From: an uncultured Verrucomicrobiota bacterium
GTDB lineage: Bacteria > Verrucomicrobiota > Verrucomicrobiia > Limisphaerales > Palsa-1400
Direction: 5' to 3'
DNA: 20,382 bases
NCBI GenBank assembly: GCA_964558455.1
Contig: CAZLEE010000067.1
Location: 1-20,382 of the forward strand
The notes below the pieces were generated by a model that was not told where the DNA came from, made no database searches, and saw nothing but the letters and a program-made list of their open reading frames with translations. The position numbers and the translations under genes were made by a program. Position 1 is the first letter of the stretch; the number at the start of each line of letters is the position of its first letter. This document shows, one piece after another, positions 1-13,159 of this stretch.

Positions 1-180
1 GCCGATACGCGTCGGCGTCGGCAAAATGTTGCGCTCCATCCAACTCAATGACCACGCCGGTTTCAGCGCTTAAAAAATCCACCTCCATTTTGCCATGTCC
101 ATCGAATGAAATCGGCAATTCCACATTCAGGCGAAAACGACCGGACGTTGCGGGCAGGCTTTGCAGACGACGAAAAAGAA
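1..180 (-). other. DUF559 / Vsr-like endonuclease-fold domain (C-terminal domain of the helicase fusion, truncated by the window edge)
   Basis: Hand translation gives ...LQSLPATSGRFRLNVELPISFDGHGKMEVDFLSAETGVVIELDGAQHFADADAYR. This is the characteristic DUF559 core (VDF...IELDG..H). It continues beyond position 1. Confidence 0.7.
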
Positions 181-2755
181 AGGCTTCGCTGGCGCTCCGG
201 GCACGATCTTCTCCCTTGGCGTTGACATCGGGCGTCCGGGCCGCATGCACGAACAAATTCGCCAGCGGAACATCCACTCCGTCGCGAATGAGCCGGCGAA
301 CGCTGGCGGCGTAATCCTTTTTCCATTCCGGGTCTATCGGAAGCGGAACCTCAGCCGGCCAGCCCGGCAGAGCACTGCCTGGCAGCAGGATGGTGTAGCC
401 AAGTGATTCGTATCCACGGCACCGTCTGTCGAACATTCTGGAAAGCATCGGAACGTTCAGGTCGGCGTAGTCATAGACCCGCACTTCGCGTTTGCCTTCA
501 TGCAGACGATGGAGCCGCCCGACGTACTGCGCAATGGTTCCCCGCCATGAAACCGGCAGGGCCAAAAACAAGGTGTCCAAGCGCGGGTCGTCGAAGCCTT
601 CTCCGATGTATTTTCCCGTGGCCAGAATCACCCGCCCCACACTCCCGGGAATCCGGGCCAATTGCGCAAGGGCGGCGGCTAACACCTTTTTGCCCTGACC
701 TCCTTGCAACAGAATCAAACGCGGGATTTCCGGGGACAGTAGTTGAGCCAAACGTTGCAGGTGTTCTATTCGTTCGGTCAGCACCAAGGGCGACCGCCCC
801 TGGTTGATGGTGCTTACGACGTCTGCGCAAATCATTTGATTGCGCTTGTCGTCATTCCACAAGGCCTCATATAGCTGTTGAAATTCCGCGCGCGGATCAG
901 GCTCGGACACCACTGCCGCGCGAAAACTGGTCGGGCGGACCATGACATGATGCGTGAAAGGCCGCGCCGCCGCCTGGACCTTCGCGTTCACACGATGCCG
1001 AACCGGGCCGCACTGCATGAAAATAATCGGATGGTGCCCGTCCTTGCGGGCCACTGTGGCGGACAAGCCGGTGATGAACTTCGCTTTGGCGCGACGGACG
1101 GCCAATTCAAAGCTGCGCGCTGAAATATGGTGGCATTCATCCACAATCAAATGTCCGTAATCGGCCACGCAATCATCCACCACTTCTTTGCGAACAAGGC
1201 TCTGGATTAATGCCACATCCAATACGCCCGTCAACTTGTTGCGTCCGCCCCCCAATCGCCCGATGCTCTTGGCTGGCAGACCCAGAAACGAGGATAAGCG
1301 GTCAATCCACTGTTCGAGGAGTTGCTGGCGGTGAACTAATACTAATGTGTTGACGCCGCGTTGAGCAATGAGCCAAGCCGCAACCACTGTTTTGCCAAAA
1401 GCCGTGGTCGCAGCCAGAACGCCCGTGTCATGCCCGAGCAACGCCTCAGCCGCTGCTTGCTGCTCAGGCCGCAATGTGCCACAGAAAGAAACGTTCAATG
1501 GAATGCCTCCGTTGCGTTCATCACGTAGAACCGGTTGAATGTGGAGAGACTCAAGCGCCGACTGAACTTCATCCAAACACCCTCGTGGCAGAGCGAAATG
1601 CTTTGGGTGATCCTCAGCGCAAGAAATGATTCTTGGCTTGTTGTAGGTCGGCAGGCGCATGGCTTGCGCGCGATAGAACTCGGGGTTTTGAAACGCGGCC
1701 AAACGCAGCAATCGGTTGCGCAGCCCCGGCGCAAGGTTTTCTTTGGCGATATAGATTTGGTCTCCGAGAATTACCTCGATCTTGTCCGGAAGAGGACCGG
1801 GGATGGGGGGGTCCTTTCGGTGACGTGATGGGGGCGCCGTCCAAGGATTGTCATCATCCTCGTCCGCCATGGCCATGCGCACTCCAATAACCCGTCCTTT
1901 GGAATCCGCGTCACGCACCAAAGCCTCGGCTCGCGCACGGCTCATTCGCCGCACTGAGGCCAGGAAAGCCCATTGATCGGCGTATGGCCCGAACTGTTCG
2001 TCGAGGAAAAGAGTGTTGCCGCGCTGCCTTGCCTGTTTTTGCAGGGGAAGCGCGATCAGATTTCCAAACCCGCCTTTGGGCAGCGTGTCCTGGTTGGGAA
2101 ACAGCCGGTCATAGGAATTAAGGCCAATTTCGGGCCGGTGCTCCATCGTCTCAGTGAGAATGTGCGAACCAAGTTTGCGCGCCAGACTGGCGGAAATAGC
2201 CTCTTCAAAGAAAAACCACACATGGCCGCCGTTGCCGGATCGCGAGCGTTCCAAGACGGCGGGCACGTCCAGCCGTCGGCACATTTCGAGAAACGCGGCC
2301 GCATCCCGCTGCCAATCTTCGCCGTCGAAGTCCACTGCCAGAAAGAAACAAGTCTCGTCCTGCAACATGGCATAGACACCCATGACAAAATTGAGGCCGC
2401 GAGCGTCCCGGCCCGAAAGATGCCAGCCGGTCACTTCGTCAGTGATCTGAAGAAACCGGCGATTGGGACAATCGGCGCATTTGATTCGCGGTTTTTCACA
2501 GACATCCCGAACCCATTCATTGGCGCAGGCGGGCGAATAGCCGGATTTTCCGGTCTTCCGGCTCTCGAAACGGCGGGGATAGACATCCTCTCTGCCCCGG
2601 AAAAGTGATCGAAACAACTTTATCTTGGCAACTGGCGGAGAAAGGTTCGTGATCGCGGTATTTTGAGGTTTTGAAACATCGGCTTCCTGAGTCAGGAACC
2701 GCGCCTCGCTGCCGCTGATTTGGCCGATCGTTTCCACGCGGCAATTATAAGACAC
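1..2755 (-). CDS. Large multidomain protein, 3' end (C-terminus) runs off the left edge of the window. Domains in N-to-C order are a Cys4 zinc ribbon, an AEP-like (LigD-Pol/PrimPol-type) primase-polymerase domain, an SF2 DEAH-box helicase core and a DUF559 (Vsr-like PD-(D/E)xK endonuclease) domain. The start codon is uncertain: in-frame GTG at 2755 and 2737, TTG at 2617.
   Basis: I translated the minus strand by hand. The reading frame whose codon low coordinates are 2 mod 3 is open from position 1 to a double stop (TGATGA) at 2789-2794. It is absent from the ORF track only because it lacks a stop inside the window. Zinc ribbon: CANEWVRDVCEKPRIKCADC at about 2468-2527. AEP motif I: FLAVDFDGEDW, with DxD at 2324-2332. 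AEP motif II, about 30 aa later: RSRSGNGGHVWFFF, with SGxGxH at 2222-2239. A downstream stretch SYDRLFPNQD...GFGNLIALPL resembles AEP motif III and the following strand. Helicase motif I: GVLAATTAFGKTV, with GKT at 1388-1396. Motif II: LIVDECHH at about 1127-1141. Motif III: GLSATV. Motif VI: QYVGRLHR at 506-529. The C-terminus reads FRLNVELPISFDGHGKMEVDFLSAETGVVIELDGAQHFADADAYR at 1-180, which matches the DUF559 consensus (fRRQ..i..y.vDF......IElDG..H). The first roughly 50 codons after the stop are low complexity, so the true start is probably internal. Confidence 0.8.
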   Translation of the reverse strand, partial: MSYNCRVETIGQISGSEARFLTQEADVSKPQNTAITNLSPPVAKIKLFRSLFRGREDVYPRRFESRKTGKSGYSPACANEWVRDVCEKPRIKCADCPNRRFLQITDEVTGWHLSGRDARGLNFVMGVYAMLQDETCFFLAVDFDGEDWQRDAAAFLEMCRRLDVPAVLERSRSGNGGHVWFFFEEAISASLARKLGSHILTETMEHRPEIGLNSYDRLFPNQDTLPKGGFGNLIALPLQKQARQRGNTLFLDEQFGPYADQWAFLASVRRMSRARAEALVRDADSKGRVIGVRMAMADEDDDNPWTAPPSRHRKDPPIPGPLPDKIEVILGDQIYIAKENLAPGLRNRLLRLAAFQNPEFYRAQAMRLPTYNKPRIISCAEDHPKHFALPRGCLDEVQSALESLHIQPVLRDERNGGIPLNVSFCGTLRPEQQAAAEALLGHDTGVLAATTAFGKTVVAAWLIAQRGVNTLVLVHRQQLLEQWIDRLSSFLGLPAKSIGRLGGGRNKLTGVLDVALIQSLVRKEVVDDCVADYGHLIVDECHHISARSFELAVRRAKAKFITGLSATVARKDGHHPIIFMQCGPVRHRVNAKVQAAARPFTHHVMVRPTSFRAAVVSEPDPRAEFQQLYEALWNDDKRNQMICADVVSTINQGRSPLVLTERIEHLQRLAQLLSPEIPRLILLQGGQGKKVLAAALAQLARIPGSVGRVILATGKYIGEGFDDPRLDTLFLALPVSWRGTIAQYVGRLHRLHEGKREVRVYDYADLNVPMLSRMFDRRCRGYESLGYTILLPGSALPGWPAEVPLPIDPEWKKDYAASVRRLIRDGVDVPLANLFVHAARTPDVNAKGEDRARSASEAFLFRRLQSLPATSGRFRLNVELPISFDGHGKMEVDFLSAETGVVIELDGAQHFADADAYR
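506..1490 (-). other. SF2 (DEAH-type) helicase core of the fusion protein
   Basis: Motifs occur in the correct order and with correct spacing. They are a Q-like LRPEQ, Walker A AFGKT, Walker B DECHH, SAT, VILATGKYIGEGFD (motif V-like) and QYVGRLHR (motif VI). Confidence 0.8.
2042..2340 (-). other. AEP (archaeo-eukaryotic primase superfamily; LigD-Pol/PrimPol-like) catalytic domain. Tentative.
   Basis: The motif I to motif II spacing is hhhDhD (LAVDFD) followed about 30 aa later by SGxGxHhhh (SGNGGHVWF). This order and spacing is typical of AEPs, and a motif III-like DRLFPNQD...NLIALPL follows. There is no YxDD and no GS...DxD order, so a reverse transcriptase or Pol-beta nucleotidyltransferase fold is unlikely. 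The call rests on motifs read from the sequence only. Confidence 0.5.
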
Positions 2756-2917
2756 CCGGGATGACGCTGGCGAACTCGTTTTTCGTAATCATCAAGTCAG
2801 GAATTCTCCGGCCTTGACGCTTCCAAAACAACTCGCGTCCCTGCACGATAACCTTTGTGAACAACCGGCGAATAATTCCTGGTTGACTCCGCCATCGGAG
2901 TCGAGATGCTTTGATGC
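2756..2917. promoter_or_regulatory. Divergent intergenic and promoter region between the two helicase genes. It contains two plus-strand TTGAC hexamers (2814-2819 and 2884-2889) and an 8-bp inverted repeat CAGGAATT / AATTCCTG (2798-2805 and 2874-2881).
   Basis: Both features were read directly from the sequence. There is no strong -10 hexamer. Spacing would place any transcription start at or next to ATG 2918, which hints at a leaderless or short-leader mRNA. A perfect TATAAT sits on the minus strand at 2747-2752, but it lies inside the ORF if GTG 2755 is the start. Confidence 0.3.
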
Positions 2918-5662
2918 ATGCAGAACAAAGTGAAATCGGCGCCCGCCGTGCCGTCGCACCATAATTGGCGCACCACCGATGAGGACGAAATCAACCGCCG
3001 CCGGGAGCGCGCACTGAACGAGGATTTCAAAATCACCAACGCCACTCCCGCCCATCCCATTTTCTCCAACTTCCAGGTCAAGTCGGGCAGCGGTCTGACT
3101 TATTCGGTCGAGGTGCGCGATTTGGGCCAGCGCCAGTTTGCCTGCCAATGCGTTGATTTTCGCATCAATGGCTTGGGCACTTGCAAACACGTCGAGGCGG
3201 TCCTGCTTTACTTGCAGGCGCGTTATGCAAGGGCCTTTCGGGCCGCCGGCCAAAAAGGTTCCACTCGCATCGAGGTGCTGCCGGACCCGTTGCACGACAC
3301 CTTGCGTCTGGTCAACGGCCATGGCCCGTTGCCCCCGACTTTGCGCGAATGGTTCAACGACGATGGACAATTGATCGAATCCGCGCCCGAAACCGCGGCG
3401 GAAGCGTTGCGGCGGCTGGCGGCCAGCCAACTGCCCCAACTGCGCGTCTCGCAGGAGTTGGACCCGTGGCTGCAAGCGCGCGGCCAGGCCGCCGAGCGCA
3501 AAGAGTTGCGCCGCCAGTACGAACTCAAAGTGCAGAGCGGCCAATGGCCGGCGCACGAAACCAAAATGCCGCTCTTTCCGTATCAGCGCGAAGGGATGCT
3601 TCACCTGGCCTTTACGGAGCGGGCCTTGCTGGCCGACGAAATGGGCCTGGGTAAAACCATTCAGGCCATTGCCGCCTGCGCTTTGCTCCACCGGATGGGG
3701 AAAGCCCGCCATGTGCTCGTTGTCACACCGGCCTCGCTCAAGAGCGAATGGGAGGAACAAATCCAGCGTTTCACGGCGCTGCCGTACCAACTGGTTTTTG
3801 GCGCCCGCACGCGACGATTGGCCGCTTACGCCAGCGCCCCGTTCTTTACCATCGTCAATTACGAACAAATGCTGGCCGACTCGCTGGACGTGAACACCCG
3901 CCTGCGGCCGGACATCGTGGTGCTGGACGAAGCGCAACGCATCAAAAACTGGAGCGCCAAAACCACCCAGGCGATCAAGCGCCTGCGCAGCCGTTATGCT
4001 TTTATTCTCACCGGCACCCCGATTGAAAACCGTCTTGATGAATTATATTCGCTGATGGATTTCCTGAACCCGTCGCTGCTCGGCCCGCTCTTTCGCTTCA
4101 ACCGCGAGTATTATGAATTGGACGACCGGGGACGGCCCACAGCCTATCGCAACCTCGACAAACTGCGCCAACGCGTCAAGCCCCTCATCCTCCGCCGCCG
4201 CAAAGCGGATGTTGAGACCGAGTTGCCCGAACGCACCGACCGCAACCACTTCGTCCCACTCAGCACGGAACAGCAGGGCGAGTATGACGACCATGAAGCG
4301 GTCGTCGCCAGATTGGCTTCCATCGCCGCGCGCCGTCCCCTGGCCCAACCGGAACAGGACAAGCTGATGCGCCATCTGAACATGATGCGCATGGTTTGCA
4401 ACACCGATTACATCCTGAACCCCGAACACCGCGCCTGCCCCAAAATCAAGGAGCTGGAAAAAATCCTTGAGGAATGCCGCGACAACCAGGACGTCAAGGT
4501 GATCATTTTCTCGGAATGGACGCGGATGCTGGAACTGGCGCGGGATTTGTGTCAGCGGCTCGGACTGGGCTTTGCCTGGCACACAGGCGCCGTCCCGCAA
4601 AAGCGGCGGCGGGCCGAGATCAATCTTTTTAAATCAGACCCGCACTGCCGCGTATTCCTCAGCACCGATTCCGGCGCGGCGGGCCTGAACCTGCAAAACG
4701 CCAGCGTCGTCGTCAACTGCGACCTGCCCTGGAATCCGGCCAAGCTGGAGCAACGCATCGCGCGCGCCTGGCGCAAAAACCAGACCCGCCCCGTCACCGT
4801 CATCAACCTCATTTCTGAAAAAACCATCGAGCACCGCATGCTCGAAACCCTCTCCAACAAGCAGGCATTGTCCGACGGCGTGCTGGACTTCAAAGGAAAG
4901 CTTGCCGAAATCAAACTGCGCAGCGGACGACAGGCTTTCCTGTCCAAGCTTCAGCAATTGATCACCCCGGCGGCGGGGAACCCCGCTGCCGCAATTCCCA
5001 AGCCGCCGCTTCCCGCCGATCGTCCGCTTGGTTTTGCCCAAGCCGCCCATCAGCGGGTCAACGGCGCGTTGTGCCGCTGCGAAGAACGTTACCCGCTGGA
5101 AGGCCCCCATTCGGTGCTCTACGTGGTGGTGGAACGCGACGCCGCGCAATGGCGCGAAAACCTTAATGCCTTGCACCAGGATTACTTTGGCCCCGGGCAA
5201 TCAGACCCTTTGGCGCCGGTACGCCTGGAAGTTGTTGACCGTGCGACGGATGAAGCCTTGCATCGGTTGATTGAGGCGGGACTGGTGGCCCGGACCACCC
5301 GCGCCACCCGTGCGCTCTGGCCATTGGAGGCTGGTCCGGGATCGCCCGCCCCTCTCTCTGACGTGGAACGAGAGAAAGCCGCCGCCCATCGCCAGCGAGC
5401 GGCGCGCAAATTAAAAATGGCCGCGGTCCTGGCCGGTGGAGGCTTGCCCGAGGAAGCCCGCACCGCGCTGCTGGACGCCCTGCTTCCCTTGGGATGCGCC
5501 TTGGCCGTTGAAAACCGCCTGCCGGAACCCGCCTCGTTGCAGGACGCGTTCCTGCCTCCATTGGGCCTGGTTTGGAAGGACGCGTTGTCAATACTGCGGA
5601 GTTTTGTGCAAGACGACTCCCAACCCGTCGCGGCGGCCGCAGCGGCGCTCGAAAGGATTTGA
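2918..5662 (+). CDS. SNF2/RAD54-family DNA-dependent ATPase (helicase-like) with an N-terminal SWIM zinc finger and a C-terminal extension of about 250 aa of unknown function
   Basis: The ORF is 914 aa. The SWIM finger CQCVDFRINGLGTCKHVEAV (CxC...CxH) lies at about 3141-3200. The SNF2_N motifs are LFPYQREGMLHLAFTERALLADEMGLGKTIQAIA (motif I), VVLDEAQRIKNWSAKT (DEAQ box) and FILTGTPIENRL. The helicase-C motifs are KVIIFSEWTRMLE, STDSGAAGLNLQNASVVVNCDLPWNP and QRIARAWRKNQ (motif VI). The first ATG follows an in-frame TGA at 2912-2914. Confidence 0.9.
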   Translation: MQNKVKSAPAVPSHHNWRTTDEDEINRRRERALNEDFKITNATPAHPIFSNFQVKSGSGLTYSVEVRDLGQRQFACQCVDFRINGLGTCKHVEAVLLYLQARYARAFRAAGQKGSTRIEVLPDPLHDTLRLVNGHGPLPPTLREWFNDDGQLIESAPETAAEALRRLAASQLPQLRVSQELDPWLQARGQAAERKELRRQYELKVQSGQWPAHETKMPLFPYQREGMLHLAFTERALLADEMGLGKTIQAIAACALLHRMGKARHVLVVTPASLKSEWEEQIQRFTALPYQLVFGARTRRLAAYASAPFFTIVNYEQMLADSLDVNTRLRPDIVVLDEAQRIKNWSAKTTQAIKRLRSRYAFILTGTPIENRLDELYSLMDFLNPSLLGPLFRFNREYYELDDRGRPTAYRNLDKLRQRVKPLILRRRKADVETELPERTDRNHFVPLSTEQQGEYDDHEAVVARLASIAARRPLAQPEQDKLMRHLNMMRMVCNTDYILNPEHRACPKIKELEKILEECRDNQDVKVIIFSEWTRMLELARDLCQRLGLGFAWHTGAVPQKRRRAEINLFKSDPHCRVFLSTDSGAAGLNLQNASVVVNCDLPWNPAKLEQRIARAWRKNQTRPVTVINLISEKTIEHRMLETLSNKQALSDGVLDFKGKLAEIKLRSGRQAFLSKLQQLITPAAGNPAAAIPKPPLPADRPLGFAQAAHQRVNGALCRCEERYPLEGPHSVLYVVVERDAAQWRENLNALHQDYFGPGQSDPLAPVRLEVVDRATDEALHRLIEAGLVARTTRATRALWPLEAGPGSPAPLSDVEREKAAAHRQRAARKLKMAAVLAGGGLPEEARTALLDALLPLGCALAVENRLPEPASLQDAFLPPLGLVWKDALSILRSFVQDDSQPVAAAAAALERI

Positions 5663-6440
5663 TTAAAATGGTCGGGGCGGTGAGGTCAGGGTTGCGATCT
5701 GGTCGAACGGCGAAAGGCGCGCATTTGGACCAGGGCCGTTTTGAAAAAAGGTTCGCCGAAAAGCTCGTGCCCGGTGCTCTTGGGGGTTTTGGGGGCGAAG
5801 TGATCGTGCCTCAACCAGCCGTCCACCAGCGCGGAGGAAATCCGCCCGCGCGCGGCCCATCGGCCATGTCAATCAAAACGTTGCCCGGGCCGGTGTCAAA
5901 GGCCAGCACGCGCGGCTGGCCGCCTTTGCGCCAATCGAGGGATGTGACGTTGCTGATGCCGCCCAGATTATTGACGCAGACGTGGGTGCCGCGCCGGGCA
6001 AAAACAAATTGGTGAAACAACGTCGCCAGCGGAGCGCCCTGCCCGCCCGCCGCCATGTCGGCTGCGCGAAAATTGCTGACCACCGGCGCGCGCAACGCCT
6101 CCACCAGATAGGCGGGTTCGCCCAGTTGCAACGTGGCCGGCGCATCCGGCGACGGATTATGGAAAACCGTCTGACCGTGCAACCCGGCATAATCCGGGCG
6201 CGCGATTTTTTTCCCCCTGGGCCGGGCGTGCAAGGCGTAAAAGCGGCCCAAATCATGGTGCAATTGCGCGAGCGGATAGCAGGACAAATCGCCTCGCGCC
6301 GCGGCGTGCAGGGCGGCCCGGAGCGGTTTGGGAAAGTCGGCGGACCAGAGATGAAGCAACCGGATGGCTTTGCCGTCGATTGAAGGCTGAAGACTAAAAT
6401 AAAACGTGGCGTAATCGGAGAAGGCGTCAGACCAGAGCAC
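5663..6440 (-). pseudogene. anmK: anmK (anhydro-N-acetylmuramic acid kinase) remnant. It is truncated at the 3' end, frameshifted, and has a degenerate N-terminal phosphate-binding loop.
   Basis: ORF 5811..6440 (GTG start) translates with a strong match to the AnmK core: GLHGQTVFHNPS...ATLQLGEPAYLVEALRAPVVSNFRAADMAAGGQGAPL...VCVNNLGGISNVTSL...VLAFDTGPGNVLID. The frame then ends in an unrelated 20 aa. A different frame (5663..5872) carries AnmK-like ...FDQIATLTS and stops at 5663, which is exactly where the convergent SNF2 gene ends. The roughly 100 C-terminal residues of AnmK are absent in every frame. The N-terminal loop reads FSLQPSIDG instead of the canonical GxMSGTSLDG. Confidence 0.7.
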
Positions 6441-6510
6441 GGTTCGTTTGAGGGTTGACTAAGAGTGCGAAAAAGTTATAGGCGCATCATGCCAAGGCAG
6501 TTGCAAGTGC
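6441..6510 (+). repeat. Copy A of a conserved ~70-bp element. It reads GGTTCGTTT...TTGACT-N16-TATAGG...ATGCCAAGGCAGTTGCAAG.
   Basis: It aligns to copy B (8803-8870). The core TTGACTAA(A)GAG.GCG/CGTAAAAAGTTATA is about 90% identical. Flanking GGTTCGTTT and a downstream ATGCC..G..AGTTGC..G are also conserved. The -35 TTGACT is at 6455-6460 and the -10 TATAGG is at 6477-6482 with a 16-bp spacer. Confidence 0.7.
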
Positions 6511-6586
6511 AGTGCATCAGTCCTCACTTTTTAAACCATCCTGTTTACGCCTCCACACGTCCACCGCCACCGCTCCCGCCGCCAGA

Positions 6587-8590
6587 CTAACTCTTGGGTT
6601 TGGCTGGTGCTGCTTCTGTTGCGGCGGGTGCGTTCAGAGATTTGGCAAACATCCCCGTCAATGTCGCCATCAATCCGTTAGCGGCGTTCCCATCGCCATT
6701 TCCACCCGTCACCAGGATGTTGGGCATGAAGGGTACGGTGCCGCGGGAGAGCACGTCGGCCACGTTGACCAAGGCGGTTTGGGCCTGGCCAAGAGCAGAA
6801 ACCTGTTCTTTGTACGCTTTGGCTTTGGCCAATCCGACCGCTTCCACTTCGGCGGCTTTGGCGGCGCCGGTGCGGGAGGTGAAGGTGGCCTCGCCATCGG
6901 CTTCGGCTTTGCGGGCCTTGGCATTGTTTTCCTTGATGGAAATCTCGACTTCCGAGCGCGCCAGCGGGCTTTGCATATCAGCGGTGCCCTTGGCTTTTTC
7001 CATTGCCACGCGGCCCTTCTGGGCTTCCTCCTGTTTTTGGAACGTGGCGATTTGTTGATTGGCAATCTCGCGTTCGGTCAGCACCCTGACCAGGTCTTCC
7101 GGCAAAATGACGTCCTGGATGTAAACGCCGCGCGTTTCAACGTCATATTGGGCCAGTTGAGCTTGAATGTGTTTGAAAGCTTCCTGCTGAACTTCCTGGC
7201 GAGTCTCGATGAATTGGATGGCATGCATGGACCCCAACTTGTCGCGAAAAAGGTTGCCCACGGCGGCCTGAAGCACATCGTCCACAAGGTTCTTCATGGT
7301 TCCCACCATCGAGATGACCTTGGGCGCCTTGGTGTCGGGCACATGGATGAGGACCTGCAAATCAATTTTGAAAACGAATCCTTCGTCGCTCTTGGCGACA
7401 ATGGGCTGGAGGTTTTTGTCCAGGCCATGAGCGCCGGTGACTTCGGCGGCCCAATCCAGCTTGAGGATGGCCGTCGGCACAACCTCTGCCTTGTAGATGC
7501 GCGGATTGATGGCGTACTTGCCGGTACGCAACGGGTCTTCCCAAAGACCGCGATGGCCCGGTTTGACCAACGAACCAAATTTGAAGTTCGGTCCGGAGGT
7601 GTCTTGCGTGACCAGTCCGACGTAGGCTTTGATGGCAGCAGCTTCACCCTGTTTGACCACCAGCATGGGGACGGTTTCCACCCGCACCAGGAATGGGTTC
7701 AGAGTGTAGGCCCCGTAGCGGAGGACATCGTGCTGCAAACCCATTTTCCCGCCGGCATTCAGGAAGGCCTGGAAGTCTTGGTAATTATTGTGAGACGCAT
7801 TTTTATCGCCTAACAGCACTTCGATGAGCTTCTGGTCGTCAGCACCCTCCAGTTCGAGCTTTTCCATGTCTCCAAACCCGCCCAGACGACTGGCAATGTG
7901 ACCGGACTCAAGGGGATCACCTTCGAGCGTCGTGACCACGCCCACCACATCGAGCTTTTCCTCGCTGCCCTGCTGTAATTGCGGTTCGACCCGGAACACA
8001 TCAAGTTGTCTGGGTTCGAGATTGAAGGAGGCGGGCGTCAGCCTTTCATCTCTTCCCTCGAACGCCTGAAGATCGCGAGAAATGGGAAGCCCGAAGACTT
8101 TGTTCTTGGTGATGACCAGGAACGCAACCGGGTGAATGGGCAAAAGACTGCCAGGAGCCAGAACCGGACGTTGAACCCCTTTTTCGCCCTCGTTACTGAT
8201 GAAGCCGGGGAGGTCCGTGAAGTTCCCAAATTCCTTTTTATAGCGGGCGGACTTCGCCCCGGCAGGCAAGGTTTTGCCGACTTGGGCAATCAGGACACCG
8301 ATTTCGTTGGCCGGCACCTGGACCCAGGGAAATTTTTCCACTTTGTATAGGAACCACCATTTGAAACGTACACCCGGCATCAGGAGTTCCGCCTGATAAC
8401 CGGCCTCACCTTGGAACGCAACAGGATTGTCGGTTGGCAGCTTGTGGCCGAACCGCTTCATGACCAGACCGACTTCCGCCGGTCCAACGATGCGAATGGA
8501 CTTCCAGACAGTCAAAAATATCAACACGGCCAGCGCCGTAATTTCCAAGGCCAGGATGGGATGGGCCATCAGAATTGGCATAATGGGCAT
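6587..8590 (-). CDS. Flotillin-family SPFH/band-7 domain membrane protein. ATG start at 8590; the ORF track begins at an upstream in-frame TTG at 8680.
   Basis: The ORF is 667-697 aa. It has an N-terminal hydrophobic hairpin (PILALEITALAVLIFLTVW), an SPFH domain (EVGLVMKRFG...VPANEIGVLIAQVGK...) and a long charged coiled-coil region (QQIATFQKQEEAQKGRVAMEKAKG..., ARKAEADGEA..., AKAKAYKEQVSALGQAQ) typical of flotillin/YqiK-like proteins. The sequence MPIMPILM immediately precedes the membrane hairpin, which makes ATG 8590 the more plausible start. Confidence 0.85.
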   Translation of the reverse strand: MPIMPILMAHPILALEITALAVLIFLTVWKSIRIVGPAEVGLVMKRFGHKLPTDNPVAFQGEAGYQAELLMPGVRFKWWFLYKVEKFPWVQVPANEIGVLIAQVGKTLPAGAKSARYKKEFGNFTDLPGFISNEGEKGVQRPVLAPGSLLPIHPVAFLVITKNKVFGLPISRDLQAFEGRDERLTPASFNLEPRQLDVFRVEPQLQQGSEEKLDVVGVVTTLEGDPLESGHIASRLGGFGDMEKLELEGADDQKLIEVLLGDKNASHNNYQDFQAFLNAGGKMGLQHDVLRYGAYTLNPFLVRVETVPMLVVKQGEAAAIKAYVGLVTQDTSGPNFKFGSLVKPGHRGLWEDPLRTGKYAINPRIYKAEVVPTAILKLDWAAEVTGAHGLDKNLQPIVAKSDEGFVFKIDLQVLIHVPDTKAPKVISMVGTMKNLVDDVLQAAVGNLFRDKLGSMHAIQFIETRQEVQQEAFKHIQAQLAQYDVETRGVYIQDVILPEDLVRVLTEREIANQQIATFQKQEEAQKGRVAMEKAKGTADMQSPLARSEVEISIKENNAKARKAEADGEATFTSRTGAAKAAEVEAVGLAKAKAYKEQVSALGQAQTALVNVADVLSRGTVPFMPNILVTGGNGDGNAANGLMATLTGMFAKSLNAPAATEAAPAKPKS

Positions 8591-8802
8591 AAAAGATTTC
8601 TTTTCTGTTGAGTGGTCTGCATCGTGATCTGTGCGGGATTTTGGGCTGATTTCGGGCTCTTGCAAGCGTTTTTCGCTCAAGAGCTACATACCGCTGGTCG
8701 TTCGCAAAGGCGAGGCGGTCTCGCAGAATACCGGCAGAGCCGTGTTCGTTTATGGTCTTTGCGATGAGCGCAATAGCCCGTCCGAGGGGTCACCCATGGC
8801 AT

Positions 8803-12127: not shown

Positions 12128-12925
12128 ATGGCCATCCTTACGGTGACCGGCCTGACCGTCCAGCGCGGCGGCTCCGTCATTCTTGATCGTATCCGCTGGC
12201 AGGTCATGTCCGGGGAGCATTGGGCCATTCTGGGCGCGAACGGTTCCGGCAAAACATCCCTCCTCAGCGCGTTGACCGGTTATTTGACTCCGACGGACGG
12301 CGAGGTGGAGTTGTTATCGCATCGCTACGGCGCCGCCGATTGGCGGGAGTTGCGCAAGAGAGTCGGTCTGGTCAGCTCAACCGTCCGGCAAAAGATACCG
12401 GAAGACGAACCGGCGCTCGAGACGGTCATCAGCGGACGCCAGGCCATGATTGGTTTTTGGGGGCGCATAACCGCATCGGATCGAAAACGCGGTCTGGCCA
12501 TTCTCAAGGATATCGGGTGCGCGGACTTGGCGGACCGGCCCTGGCTTTACCTTTCGCAAGGGGAACGACAGCGCCTTCTGATCGGCCGCGCCCTCATGGC
12601 GCGCCCGGCGTTGCTGATCCTGGATGAGCCGTGTTCCGGGCTTGATCCGGTCGCGCGGGAACAATTCCTGCAATTCCTGCAAAACCTGGGGCATTCCCCC
12701 AAACCACCCGCGATGGTGCTGGTCACTCATCATACCGAGGAAATCATCCCCGTCTTCTCGCACGTCTTGGTTCTGCGCCAGGGCCGCGTCCTCGCGGCCG
12801 GGGAACGAAGGAAAACGCTGACCTCCCCCATCCTATCGCGCGCCTTCAACGCCGACATTCGTTTGACAAGGAGAAATGACCGCTACCGGATTGAAATCCG
12901 CCGCAAAAGCAAAAAGCCGATGTGA
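12128..12925 (+). CDS. ABC transporter ATP-binding protein (orphan ATPase with no adjacent permease)
   Basis: The ORF is 265 aa. It has Walker A GANGSGKTS, the ABC signature LSQGERQR, Walker B LLILDEP and an H-loop LVTHH. Confidence 0.9.
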   Translation: MAILTVTGLTVQRGGSVILDRIRWQVMSGEHWAILGANGSGKTSLLSALTGYLTPTDGEVELLSHRYGAADWRELRKRVGLVSSTVRQKIPEDEPALETVISGRQAMIGFWGRITASDRKRGLAILKDIGCADLADRPWLYLSQGERQRLLIGRALMARPALLILDEPCSGLDPVAREQFLQFLQNLGHSPKPPAMVLVTHHTEEIIPVFSHVLVLRQGRVLAAGERRKTLTSPILSRAFNADIRLTRRNDRYRIEIRRKSKKPM

Positions 12926-13159
12926 TCAGTCCCGCCGCGACCAATAATATACCCCGGCCATGATGCCGACGGCCGCGACGCTCATCCAGAAAGCGGACTG
13001 AATCAAAAAAGTAATGGCGATCAGCCCGACGCCTCCGAAAAGCGGCGGACCTGAGCGTTGTTTTTTTCCGTAAATCCAGAATCCGGCCCCCACCGCGCTC
13101 CAAAACATCGAGACAAAGAGGTAGCTCGTGTCGAGTTTGAATGGAAAAATGTTCTCCAT
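12926..13159 (-). CDS. Small two-helix membrane protein of unknown function
   Basis: The 77-aa ORF has an ATG start. It contains two hydrophobic segments (YLFVSMFWSAVGAGFWIY and GGVGLIAITFLIQSAFWMSVAAVGIMAGVYYW). It begins immediately downstream of fbaB on the same strand, so co-transcription is possible. Confidence 0.5.
   Translation of the reverse strand: MENIFPFKLDTSYLFVSMFWSAVGAGFWIYGKKQRSGPPLFGGVGLIAITFLIQSAFWMSVAAVGIMAGVYYWSRRD

Follow-up and report, generated by a model that had tools for sequence, protein, structure and literature searches.

What kind of enzyme is encoded by a gene that joins an AEP (primase-polymerase) domain, an SF2 ATPase and a DUF559 nuclease domain in a single polypeptide, and what might such an enzyme do? 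The question is raised by a minus-strand gene at the start of the window (here, the whole 20,382-nucleotide stretch of DNA from an uncultured Verrucomicrobiota bacterium that was analyzed). The reading frame noted in the preliminary description is real: positions 2755 to 1 of the minus strand translate to 918 codons with zero stops, and the quoted motifs (LAVDFD, SGNGGHVWFFF, DRLFPNQD/NLIALPL, AFGKT, DECHH, SAT, QYVGRLHR, and VDF...VIELDGAQH) were all found. The window edge cuts the gene 43 codons short of its stop. On contig JGI Ga0455670_0021414 (22,202 bp; locus L001), the complete gene is uninterrupted and encodes a 961-aa protein (P0001, whose residue numbers are used below). The upstream in-frame stop is a TGA at 2791-2789, and the candidate starts are GTG 2755 and GTG 2737, with no ATG; conservation begins at approximately residue 33 in an alignment of close homologues (alignment A1). 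A promoter-like site on the minus strand (2773-2744; −35 TCGCCA, −10 TATAAT), recognized as a consensus match, overlaps the candidate starts. The gene, its parts and the region upstream of it are as follows.

1..2755, minus strand: predicted gene of the IEE family (AEP polymerase, SF2 ATPase, and DUF559 nuclease), from its translation and 48% identity to IEE
1..376, minus strand: C-terminal tail of ~170 aa without counterpart in E. coli IEE, cut by the window edge, with a low-confidence linker at P0001 788-841
~1..214, minus strand: predicted DUF559/Vsr-like PD-(D/E)xK nuclease domain (P0001 ~842-957; Pfam DUF559, 6e-12)
377..1495, minus strand: SF2 (XPB/RadD/UvsW-like) ATPase-helicase core (Pfam ResIII/DEAD)
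1496..1924, minus strand: linker region between AEP domain and ATPase (P0001 ~272-414; LAAFQNPEFY...LPRGC block)
1925..2626, minus strand: AEP (primase-polymerase) domain, Z1568-like / Pfam AEP-TOTE (6e-100)
2468..2527, minus strand: Cys4 motif, putative zinc site at the N-terminal edge of the AEP domain
2756..2917: intergenic region between the divergent IEE homologue and SNF2 gene

Pfam upheld the proposed domain order, with AEP-TOTE (PF22548) at residues 38-271, followed by ResIII/DEAD at 421-564 and DUF559 at 882-951; the last match was obtained once the full C-terminus was included. A full-length AF2 model of P0001 had a pLDDT of 48 and was unusable for domain arrangement.

A known family accounts for most of this protein. 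Residues 38-787 of P0001 aligned with residues 50-781 of E. coli O157:H7 IEE with 48% identity and 64% positives over 751 aa (BLASTP, 679 bits, E = 0), and PF22548 matched both proteins alike at ~1e-100. With E. coli IEE (ECs_1305/Z1568), the window protein shares the AEP-TOTE domain, the Cys4 motif, AEP motifs A, B, and C, the sugar-selectivity tyrosine, the linker, and all SF2 motifs. Motifs A (D136/D138 in FLAVDFD), B (H172 in SGNGGH), and C (D210 in SYD), together with Y122, a tyrosine at the steric-gate position, align with D142/D144, H178, D216, and Y128 of IEE, respectively (numbering of PMC9943667). The AEP assignment of the preliminary description thus held, both at the level of fold (the Pfam match, similarity to 7nqd at 5.7e-9, and three conserved motifs) and of conservation: D136, D138, H172, and D210 were kept in 110-121 of 123 representatives. 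Y122 did not vary among the 12 close homologues in alignment A1, and its conservation in alignment A2 was 90% or more. The four cysteines (C71, C80, C87, and C90; C-x8-C-x6-C-x2-C) lie within the span of the AEP-TOTE model, are invariant in close homologues, kept in 108-110 of 123 representatives, and also present in E. coli IEE; they probably bind zinc. The linker, which matched no Pfam model or other family, is conserved in both alignments. In the SF2 core, motifs I (GKT, 448-450), II (DECHH, 533-537), III (SAT, 559-561), and VI (QYVGRLHR, 737-744) could be located, and K449, D533, E534, R741, and R744 were kept in 118-122 of 123 representatives; K449 corresponds to K451 of IEE. Against the PDB, this core matched XPBII (7.7e-15) and RadD (6.1e-9). 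Judged by its sequence, the window gene is an intact member of the IEE (IS-excision enhancer; Z1568-like AEP) family.

The preliminary description had regarded the architecture as one that could not be assigned to any characterized protein, a view that would fail if it belonged to a widespread family already characterized. For the AEP and SF2 core it does belong to such a family, with the same architecture in E. coli IEE, so that the view is refuted in part; the DUF559 tail is absent from IEE. IEE was genetically characterized by Kusumoto 2011, according to 10.1101/2023.06.07.543989. Biochemically, it combines an AEP polymerase and an SF2 ATPase in one protein, which carries out microhomology-mediated end joining (PMC9943667): the polymerase is Mn2+-dependent, joining of 3'-overhang ends requires both domains, and the protein is a DNA-dependent ATPase for which unwinding was not detected (PMC9943667). 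The mechanism in vivo is disputed between end joining (PMC9943667) and strand switching during copy-out (10.1101/2023.06.07.543989). IS excision and its dependence on transposase have, like these biochemical activities, been demonstrated for E. coli IEE only (PMC9943667; 10.1101/2023.06.07.543989). The two proteins are alike in being encoded by stand-alone accessory genes that spread horizontally. They differ in host phylum, the closest genome matches of the window protein being mostly Verrucomicrobiota MAGs; moreover, the window gene has no nearby IS element and is paired with an SNF2 gene in its lineage. Lastly, E. coli IEE stops at residue 786, whereas the window protein continues for ~170 aa with the DUF559/Vsr-like domain.

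This tail is a putative nuclease. In the full protein, DUF559 scored 45.8 bits against a gathering cut-off of 20.6, and a profile match to 3hrl was obtained at 2.7e-7. An AF2 model of the tail alone had a core pLDDT of 80-93, and Foldseek matched this model to 3hrl (TM 0.84), I-Bth0305I, and Vsr, albeit with weak E-values of 0.01-0.03. The fold and the D...ExD..QH motif are shared with DUF559/Vsr-like endonucleases (NGO0050, 3hrl; I-Bth0305I, 3r3p; E. coli Vsr, 1vsr). We compared 56 DUF559 tails from at least eight phyla, with hosts among Verrucomicrobiota, Planctomycetota, Acidobacteriota, Lentisphaerae, Chlamydiae, Gammaproteobacteria, and others. E885, D887, E898, D900, Q903, H904, D914, K917, D918, and R930 were present in 53-56 of the 56 tails, and the first six of these in 55-56. 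Taken together, the tail has a Vsr-like fold, and its putative catalytic residues, with acidic, histidine, and lysine residues among them, are conserved across phyla. A text search of PMC9943667 and 10.1101/2023.06.07.543989 found no mention of such a tail.

Tails are a variable part of the family. Among 118 family representatives, seven carry a DUF559 tail, 51 a PLD-like tail, and 58 none, as in E. coli IEE, and there have been at least ten gains or losses of tails on the tree of the core. The PLD-tailed proteins have the same AEP and SF2 core, and their ~145-aa nuclease-superfamily domain is joined at the identical point, but its fold (PLDc_2; nearest solved relatives NucT, Zucchini, and Nuc) differs from that of the DUF559 tail. 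Whereas the DUF559 tail keeps all of its putative catalytic residues, in most PLD-like tails the HKD motif is degenerate and the HxK catalytic pair is gone. Tails of the IEE family therefore need not be catalytic, and could instead serve in DNA binding or dimerization.

The window gene was also described as half of a divergent two-gene unit with an SNF2 ATPase, lying in an acquired island next to a destroyed housekeeping gene. The features concerned are these.

2918..5662, plus strand: SNF2/Rad54-like ATPase, 914 aa (Pfam SNF2-rel_dom, 4e-47, and Helicase_C)
1..5684, no strand assigned: two-gene cassette of IEE homologue and SNF2 gene, delimited by blastn and continuing 151 nt past window position 1
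5811..6440, minus strand: remnant of anmK, truncated at its 3' end (209 aa; matches Pfam positions 31-194 of 367), immediately beside the cassette

The SNF2 protein matched PDB 1z63 at 1e-50; no Pfam match was found in its N-terminal 210 aa or C-terminal 250 aa, and PADLOC returned generic ZorD/DpdE/DrmD-like matches. By blastn, the cassette is a 5,850-nt block with 90.8% identity between L001 (7054-12889) and a second metagenome contig, L088 (10767-4925); it ends at the stop codon of each gene, and outside it the two loci are unrelated. The pairing therefore holds as a cassette in close relatives. As a general rule it does not: SNF2 is the commonest neighbor, yet it occurs at eight of 84 loci and in every orientation. 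Three of four sampled SNF2 orthologues have no IEE neighbor, and two of these three lie on the chromosome within a conserved FKBP-SNF2-esterase arrangement. We conclude that SNF2 is an optional accessory to the IEE homologue, not a required partner. The destroyed housekeeping gene was seen as the truncated anmK, and fragments of AAA_14 and of NAGLU_N, the latter 3'-truncated, lie on the opposite flank, beyond the window. An acquired island is plausible in view of the 3'-truncated housekeeping genes on both sides and of the integrase, AbiE, and similar genes that recur as neighbors elsewhere; against it, we found neither flanking repeats nor a GC shift.

More widely, no gene partner was shared consistently by the 84 loci. 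Recurrent neighbors were integrase, AbiE, AAA_14/DUF4143, and Schlafen-AlbA_2 genes, of the sort usually seen in islands and mobile elements, and CBASS was also among the neighbors of IEE-family genes. For one homologue, a DnaE2-ImuB mutagenesis cassette lies 3.5 kb away. Short forms of the family are carried by 122 plasmids, on which the genes sit in accessory regions; no full-length homologue was found among 50,697 phage records. Conservation across phyla is strong (57-84% identity). At six of 83 screened loci, matches fell in two or more reading frames, and one gene was split by an IS. The 22-kb contig contains no IS element, and IS3-type transposases were not enriched in the flanks of the 84 loci, L075 being the sole case; since IEE acts in trans, these results are weak counter-evidence to a role in IS excision. 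The IEE homologue is an autonomous, horizontally spread accessory gene that, in its lineage, travels with SNF2 as a 5.85-kb cassette.

Several other known systems resemble the window protein in part. The closest solved AEP by sequence is CAPP (7nqd/7nqe; 5.7e-9), and PADLOC named its 'PrimPol, CAS-associated' profile (3.8e-91). We rejected identity with CAPP: NCBIfam PrimPol_Msp scored 80.8 bits against a cut-off of 200, the window ORFs include no cas genes, and the fusion partners of CAPP differ. TOTE stands for TPR, OB, TBP, and Effector, and its systems have linked TPR-OB/cold-shock-domain and TBP-domain genes, by the definition in PMC12458937. The window protein does match the TOTE AEP model (PF22548, 6e-100), but a full TOTE system was rejected, as TPR-OB/cold-shock and TBP genes are absent from the 22-kb contig and the other contexts examined; TPR-OB/TBP genes are likewise absent from the recurrent neighbors of the 84 loci. 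According to the ARMADA passages of that source, ARMADA YprA also has a Vsr-type nuclease C-terminal to an SF2 helicase, but its helicase is of the YprA family whereas that of the window protein is XPB/RadD-like, no AEP domain is reported there, and the ARMADA partner genes are absent at the window locus. With LigD and polymerase theta there is a common functional logic, namely a microhomology-bridging polymerase and an end-processing or ATPase module in one polypeptide. A LigD-type protein was rejected since Pfam and NCBIfam scans found no ligase or phosphoesterase domain; the LigD AEP belongs to the AEP-proper clade, that of the window protein to the PrimPol clade. The polymerase of Pol theta is of the A-family, so the likeness is one of function, not of family membership. 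An AEP-SF3/D5 replicative primase-helicase was also rejected, given the XPB/RadD-like SF2 motor and the lack of a full-length phage homologue.

What, then, would the protein do? Most likely, it would process, synapse, and fill in the ends of DNA breaks that are connected with mobile DNA. By homology to IEE, the AEP domain would be a Mn2+-type DNA polymerase that extends 3' ends annealed via microhomologies of at least 4 nt (PMC9943667), and the SF2 ATPase would stabilize synapsis or displace proteins, with no classical unwinding (PMC9943667). The published IEE model requires unidentified nucleases for resection, and has nicking or trimming done either by the transposase or by cellular nucleases yet to be identified (PMC9943667); the added DUF559 domain may provide this activity in cis. 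One protein could then cut or trim, synapse, and fill in at breaks or intermediates arising from mobile DNA, for example in IS excision, and sealing would need a host ligase. We give a probability of roughly 0.6 to this explanation as a whole, an IEE-family polymerase/ATPase with an in-cis nuclease at mobile-DNA breaks. It is favored by the IEE homology, the conserved catalytic residues, the need for a nuclease in the IEE model, the recurring nuclease-type tails, the island-like neighbors, and plasmid carriage. Against it stand the loss of the catalytic pair in most PLD-like tails, the missing IS elements, the disputed mechanism of IEE itself, and the TOTE name of the Pfam domain, which points to immunity over repair.

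That name also lends some credit to a different explanation, which we consider possible though distinctly less probable: an immune effector against mobile elements or phages, acting alone or with SNF2, whose ATPase senses or tracks DNA, whose DUF559 domain cleaves it, and whose AEP domain blocks replication or makes an aberrant product, IS excision in E. coli being a by-product of general immune activity. Consistent with this are the CRISPR-associated PrimPol profile as best PADLOC match, the helicase-Vsr nuclease fusions of ARMADA, an experimentally validated defense system (PMC12458937), and the AbiE, integrase, and CBASS neighbors. The swapping of PLD and DUF559 tails also resembles effector swapping in defense systems, and the commonest neighbor, SNF2, shares a sharply bounded cassette and belongs to a class of ATPase that, going by profile names, occurs in DISARM, BREX, Zorya, and Dpd. 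However, the whole protein matches no PADLOC system model, TPR-OB and TBP partner genes are missing from its contig, the 84 loci share no conserved partner, three of the four SNF2 orthologues lack an IEE neighbor, and the only experiments on the family have dealt with IS excision and end joining and not with phage defense.

End joining of microhomologies in vitro (PMC9943667) would also suit a host double-strand-break repair enzyme analogous to polymerase theta or LigD, with no specific tie to mobile elements and a nuclease that trims flaps or damaged ends. The pairing of a polymerase with a helicase-like ATPase follows the logic of Pol theta, a comparison already made for another PrimPol, AgaPP (PMC11724360), and the nearby mutagenesis cassette of one homologue and the strong conservation across phyla also fit. 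We nevertheless think it improbable: distribution is patchy, genomic context differs at every locus examined, short forms are on plasmids, no Ku or ligase partner is nearby, and the multi-frame matches and IS-split gene better fit a dispensable accessory gene. Another option, which found no support and is highly improbable, is a primase-helicase that initiates the replication of an integrated element resembling a plasmid or phage, on the pattern of pRN1 ORF904 or the D5-type AEP-SF3 proteins. Mobile-element replicases are often AEP-helicase fusions (PMC5862659), and an insertion would truncate both flanking housekeeping genes. But the motor is an XPB/RadD-like SF2 and not a hexameric SF3, DnaB, or MCM, unwinding by E. 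coli IEE was not detected (PMC9943667), the conserved unit is two genes without integrase, partition, or other replicon genes, and the family is represented by accessory-region copies on plasmids and by no full-length phage homologue.

The window gene therefore belongs to a known family and carries an extra, putative nuclease domain, rather than encoding a new kind of enzyme: the AEP and SF2 core was already known, and what is new relative to E. coli IEE is the C-terminal DUF559 tail. A bolder and rather unlikely reading takes the whole IEE family to be a nuclease-armed system against mobile DNA, of which the tail-less E. coli IEE is a reduced form that borrows cleavage by the transposase. If so, the DUF559 nuclease of the long forms, with the SNF2 translocase as an option, would itself recognize and cut the intermediates through which invading DNA transposes or replicates, and the AEP domain and ATPase would reseal the host chromosome by microhomology, resulting in a transposase-independent 'erasure' of inserted elements. 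This would be a repair-coupled immune mechanism not yet described.

Translation of the minus strand from window position 2755 to 1 gave 918 sense codons, which bore out the open reading frame of the preliminary description together with all the motifs that it had quoted. The gene is complete on the source contig (L001; JGI Ga0455670_0021414, 22,202 bp), where a further 43 codons lie outside the window before a normal stop, with no interruption of the frame. A public protein collection held an exact match, a protein of 961 amino acids (P0001, the numbering of which is used here). The open frame is preceded by a TGA at 2791-2789, and the sole plausible starts are GTG 2755 and GTG 2737. In an alignment of close homologues, conservation begins at about residue 33 (SPPxAKIxLF), hence translation must start upstream of this position. 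We also noted a sigma-70-like site, a consensus match only, at window 2744-2773 (minus strand; -35 TCGCCA, 18-nt spacer, -10 TATAAT) between both candidate GTGs. If this site were used, GTG 2755 would be excluded as a start and GTG 2737 would be at or near the 5' end of a leaderless mRNA. An Rfam scan of the window returned zero matches.

Pfam domains of the full protein P0001
Residues 38-271: AEP-TOTE (PF22548), E-value 6.5e-100
Residues 421-564: ResIII/DEAD
Residues 882-951: DUF559, E-value 6e-12

The solved structure nearest to the AEP domain is the CRISPR-associated PrimPol 7nqd (5.7e-9), and those nearest to the ATPase are archaeal XPB/Rad25 (7.7e-15) and RadD. The domains proposed at the outset, including the AEP call that had been put forward as open to refutation by such searches, were therefore upheld by Pfam and by structure matches. 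NCBIfam gave sub-threshold matches only (PrimPol_Msp, XPB and RadD). The AlphaFold2 model of the whole protein, for which 12 near-identical sequences were used, had a mean pLDDT of 48 and was discarded; the model of the tail alone was used.

The IS-excision enhancer (IEE) of E. coli O157:H7 is a 786-aa fusion of a Z1568-like AEP domain and an SF2 helicase-like domain (PMC9943667), and ECs_1305 on the Sakai chromosome is annotated as 'IS-excision enhancer IEE'. Residues 38-787 of P0001 aligned to IEE residues 50-781 with 48% identity, 64% positives, 679 bits and few gaps, and the AEP-TOTE model also matched IEE (1.7e-98). The experimentally defined residues D142, D144, H178, D216, Y128, and K451 of IEE (PMC9943667) correspond to D136, D138, H172, D210, Y122, and K449 of P0001. 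In a family alignment of 122 representatives of 50%-identity clusters plus IEE, D136, D138, H172, D210, K449, the four cysteines of a Cys4 motif, the DE of motif II, and the arginines of motif VI were kept in 108-122 of the 123 sequences; Y122 was invariant in 12 close homologues and at least 90% kept in the wider alignment. Because the alignment, the Pfam match and the catalytic residues are all shared with IEE, the AEP + SF2 core belongs to a known and characterised family, and the earlier view that the architecture was unassignable was mistaken. Judged by its sequence, the gene belongs to the IEE/AEP-TOTE family and carries a DUF559 tail; it is a widespread variant of a characterised enzyme and encodes no new enzyme class. 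LigD-like, CAPP, and replicative primase-helicase assignments were also considered and were dropped on membership tests. Apart from IEE, no bacterial enzyme is known to be dedicated to IS removal.

Excision of elements of the IS3, IS1, and IS30 families, which depends on the transposase, is enhanced by IEE, as are the deletions that go with it. In vitro the protein acts as an error-prone, Mn2+-dependent DNA polymerase and joins 3' overhangs given at least 4 nt of microhomology, with both domains required; it is also a DNA-dependent ATPase for which unwinding was not detected (PMC9943667). The end-joining model requires further, unnamed nucleases (PMC9943667), and a strand-switch model has been proposed as an alternative (10.1101/2023.06.07.543989). 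Homologues of IEE in Verrucomicrobia have been on record since 2011 (10.1101/2023.06.07.543989).

The Cys4 motif (C71, C80, C87, C90) lies within the AEP-TOTE model and is invariant among close homologues. Its C-x8-C-x6-C-x2-C pattern (window 2468-2527, minus strand) is kept in E. coli IEE (residues about 83-102) and in ~90% of the family, and might form a zinc site in IEE. The word 'cysteine' is absent from the IEE biochemistry paper (PMC9943667), which mentions zinc only with regard to human PrimPol.

By contrast with the core, the tail sets P0001 apart from E. coli IEE, which ends where residue 787 aligns, whereas P0001 has 174 more residues. A profile search with the tail retrieved the DUF559 structure 3hrl (2.7e-7), and the AlphaFold2 tail model had a confident core (pLDDT 80-93, residues about 842-957). 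Foldseek matched this model to 3hrl (TM 0.84, target-normalised), to the catalytic domain of the homing endonuclease I-Bth0305I (0.70), to Vsr, and to the Vsr-like domains of PvuRts1I and AbaSI; its E-values were weak (0.01-0.03), yet in line with the sequence evidence. We consider the fold of the tail established. When one genome per species was scanned, 80 loci with 57-84% identity to the query emerged, and the tail was in frame with an IEE-like gene in 71 of them. The hosts were Verrucomicrobiota, Planctomycetota, Acidobacteriota, Lentisphaerae, Chlamydiae, Legionellales/Coxiella, other Gammaproteobacteria, Deltaproteobacteria, and Riflebacteria; an Akkermansia MAG was among them. Residues E885, D887, E898, D900, Q903, H904, D914, K917, D918, and R930 were kept in 53-56 of 56 aligned tails; this conservation indicates that the predicted nuclease site is under strong constraint, and the nuclease is probably active. 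Of the two IEE papers whose text was searched, PMC9943667 and 10.1101/2023.06.07.543989, neither mentions DUF559, Vsr, or a fused nuclease. Among homologues from genomes, the closest (84%; L008, DASRLE010000360.1) belongs to a bin named as Candidatus Saccharimonadales (CPR). This is odd, since most of the other closest matches are Verrucomicrobiota, and may reflect recent transfer or an error in binning.

Good coverage of the core was available for 118 representatives, of which 58 had no tail, like IEE, seven had DUF559, 51 had a different tail of ~145 aa, and two had other tails. The ~145-aa tail is PLD-like: in a scan of 22 sequences PLDc_2 matched 19, and among solved proteins NucT, Zucchini, and Nuc are nearest. 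It takes the place of DUF559 in ~43% of sampled IEE-family clusters (51 of 118; family representatives P0133-P0267, tails past the position aligned to P0001 residue 785, alignment A3), and was not found in the IEE papers searched. Only ~7 of these tails keep the HxK pair, hence most look catalytically dead. A rough neighbour-joining tree of the core placed the PLD forms largely in one clade and the DUF559 forms in two separate groups, and it requires at least 10 changes of tail state. A tblastn search found matches in 122 plasmids; the alignments stopped at query residues 783-804, and the top 30 plasmid hits were all of the short form. No full-length homologue was found in phage records.

Some copies are disrupted. 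In a Verrucomicrobiae MAG (OY970364.1, L075:12217-13555), an IS3-family element with an OrfB-type DDE transposase ORF (12377-13111, minus strand) splits the IEE-like gene between residues ~768 and 828, so that a homologue of an IS-excision enhancer has itself been disrupted by an insertion sequence. In L088 (JGI Ga0427940_0000815, 4928-7863), gene calling gave two ORFs that overlap, one of 430 aa with AEP-TOTE and one of 548 aa with DEAD/ResIII/DUF559; the split is either genuine or due to a frameshift or to faulty assembly. Matches in more than one frame occurred at six screened genome loci (L016, L050, L060, L065, L072 from an Akkermansia muciniphila MAG, and L075).

We then considered the genomic setting of the gene.

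Features flanking the gene under study
Window 2918-5662, plus strand: SNF2 gene
Window 5811-6440, minus strand: anmK fragment, 3' half missing
L001:12852-13480, outside the window: 80-aa AAA_14 fragment and 134-aa NAGLU N-terminal fragment

Comparison of L001 with L088 by blastn gave a single 5,850-nt block of 90.8% identity with unrelated flanks, which runs from 22 nt beyond the SNF2 stop to the IEE stop. Such a sharply bounded block indicates that the IEE homologue and SNF2 form a discrete cassette in this lineage. The two genes are divergent in the window and in L088, tandem in L009 and L068, and convergent in L041; in L009, SNF2 is inverted but still adjacent, and in L071, L021, and L013 it lies further away. 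SNF2 as an obligate partner was ruled out by a reciprocal neighbourhood test, in which only one of four SNF2 orthologues at 75-93% identity (that of L088) had an adjacent IEE gene; two others shared a conserved FKBP-SNF2-esterase context. We read the association as facultative, enriched above expectation and not required; it is possibly functional.

In L001, the cassette and the AAA_14 fragment lie between 3'-truncated anmK and 3'-truncated NAGLU genes, which supports the acquired island first proposed; the remainder of the window consists of ordinary housekeeping genes. Neither att-like direct or inverted repeats nor a GC shift above chance was found at the cassette borders. It is reasonable to suppose that an insertion took place here and that neighbouring sequence was lost with it. 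IEE has been linked to deletions beside excision sites (PMC9943667); any connection with the present locus would be speculation. A 433-aa ORF without a family match (window 6512-7813, plus strand), wholly antisense to a 697-aa SPFH/Band_7 gene (6587-8680, minus strand), is most likely a spurious high-GC ORF.

Recurrent neighbours among 84 loci (flanking ORFs within 8 kb, clustered)
SNF2 ATPase: 8/84
Tyrosine integrase: 6/84
AAA_14 + DUF4143 ATPase, intact: 5/84
AbiEii, two clusters: 4/84 and 3/84
AbiEi: 3/84
Schlafen-AlbA_2 protein: 4/84

The five close homologues each had a different context, no conserved partner gene emerged among the 84 loci, and the gene is autonomous. TOTE systems are defined, in the summary given by PMC12458937, by TPR-OB and TBP partner genes; none was present in the L001 contig or among the recurrent neighbours. 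E. coli iee has AlpA, DUF3987, and a Rep-like fragment of the SpLE1 element beside it, none of which is a TOTE partner. Across the flanks of all loci, an IS3-type transposase occurred only in L075, inside the gene. PRiA4_ORF3-domain genes and DUF6880 adjoin close IEE-DUF559 homologues in two unrelated contexts (L004:12922-14370; L005:6265-9910; L006:2682-6117).

Family membership and intact polymerase, ATPase, and nuclease motifs are evident at the level of sequence. By homology to IEE, the AEP domain would extend 3' ends paired through microhomology, by templated and Mn2+-dependent DNA synthesis, and the ATPase domain would aid synapsis or protein displacement. In the E. coli model, nicking or end trimming is left to the transposase and unnamed nucleases; the architecture suggests that here the tail nuclease might supply it in cis. 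A separate ligase would still be required.

The main rival to this end-joining role is that the protein, alone or with SNF2, is an immune effector. The 'conflict system' label in Pfam, the swapping of nuclease tails within the family, and neighbours of the defence type all argue for such a role, as do the analogous fusions of helicase and Vsr domains in ARMADA (PMC12458937), but the 84 loci lack a conserved partner and PADLOC returned zero whole-system matches, hence no matching defence model. A pure host-repair role or a replication-initiator role is less likely, given the patchy distribution and variable context, the frameshifted or IS-split copies, an SF2 rather than a hexameric helicase, and the absence from phages.

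The homology to IEE joins the 'IEE' and 'AEP-TOTE conflict systems' literatures, which deal with the same domain under names that are not cross-cited. Genome engineers, too, could take an interest in a compact end-joining enzyme that combines polymerase, ATPase, and nuclease. About half of the sampled IEE family carries a fused nuclease-superfamily domain, and the active-site residues of the DUF559 version appear intact across many phyla. This raises the question of whether, with a fused nuclease, excision or deletion might no longer depend on the transposase or on host nucleases. The main value of the finding is the testable suggestion that IEE-type enzymes may generally work with a nuclease, which would here be built in.
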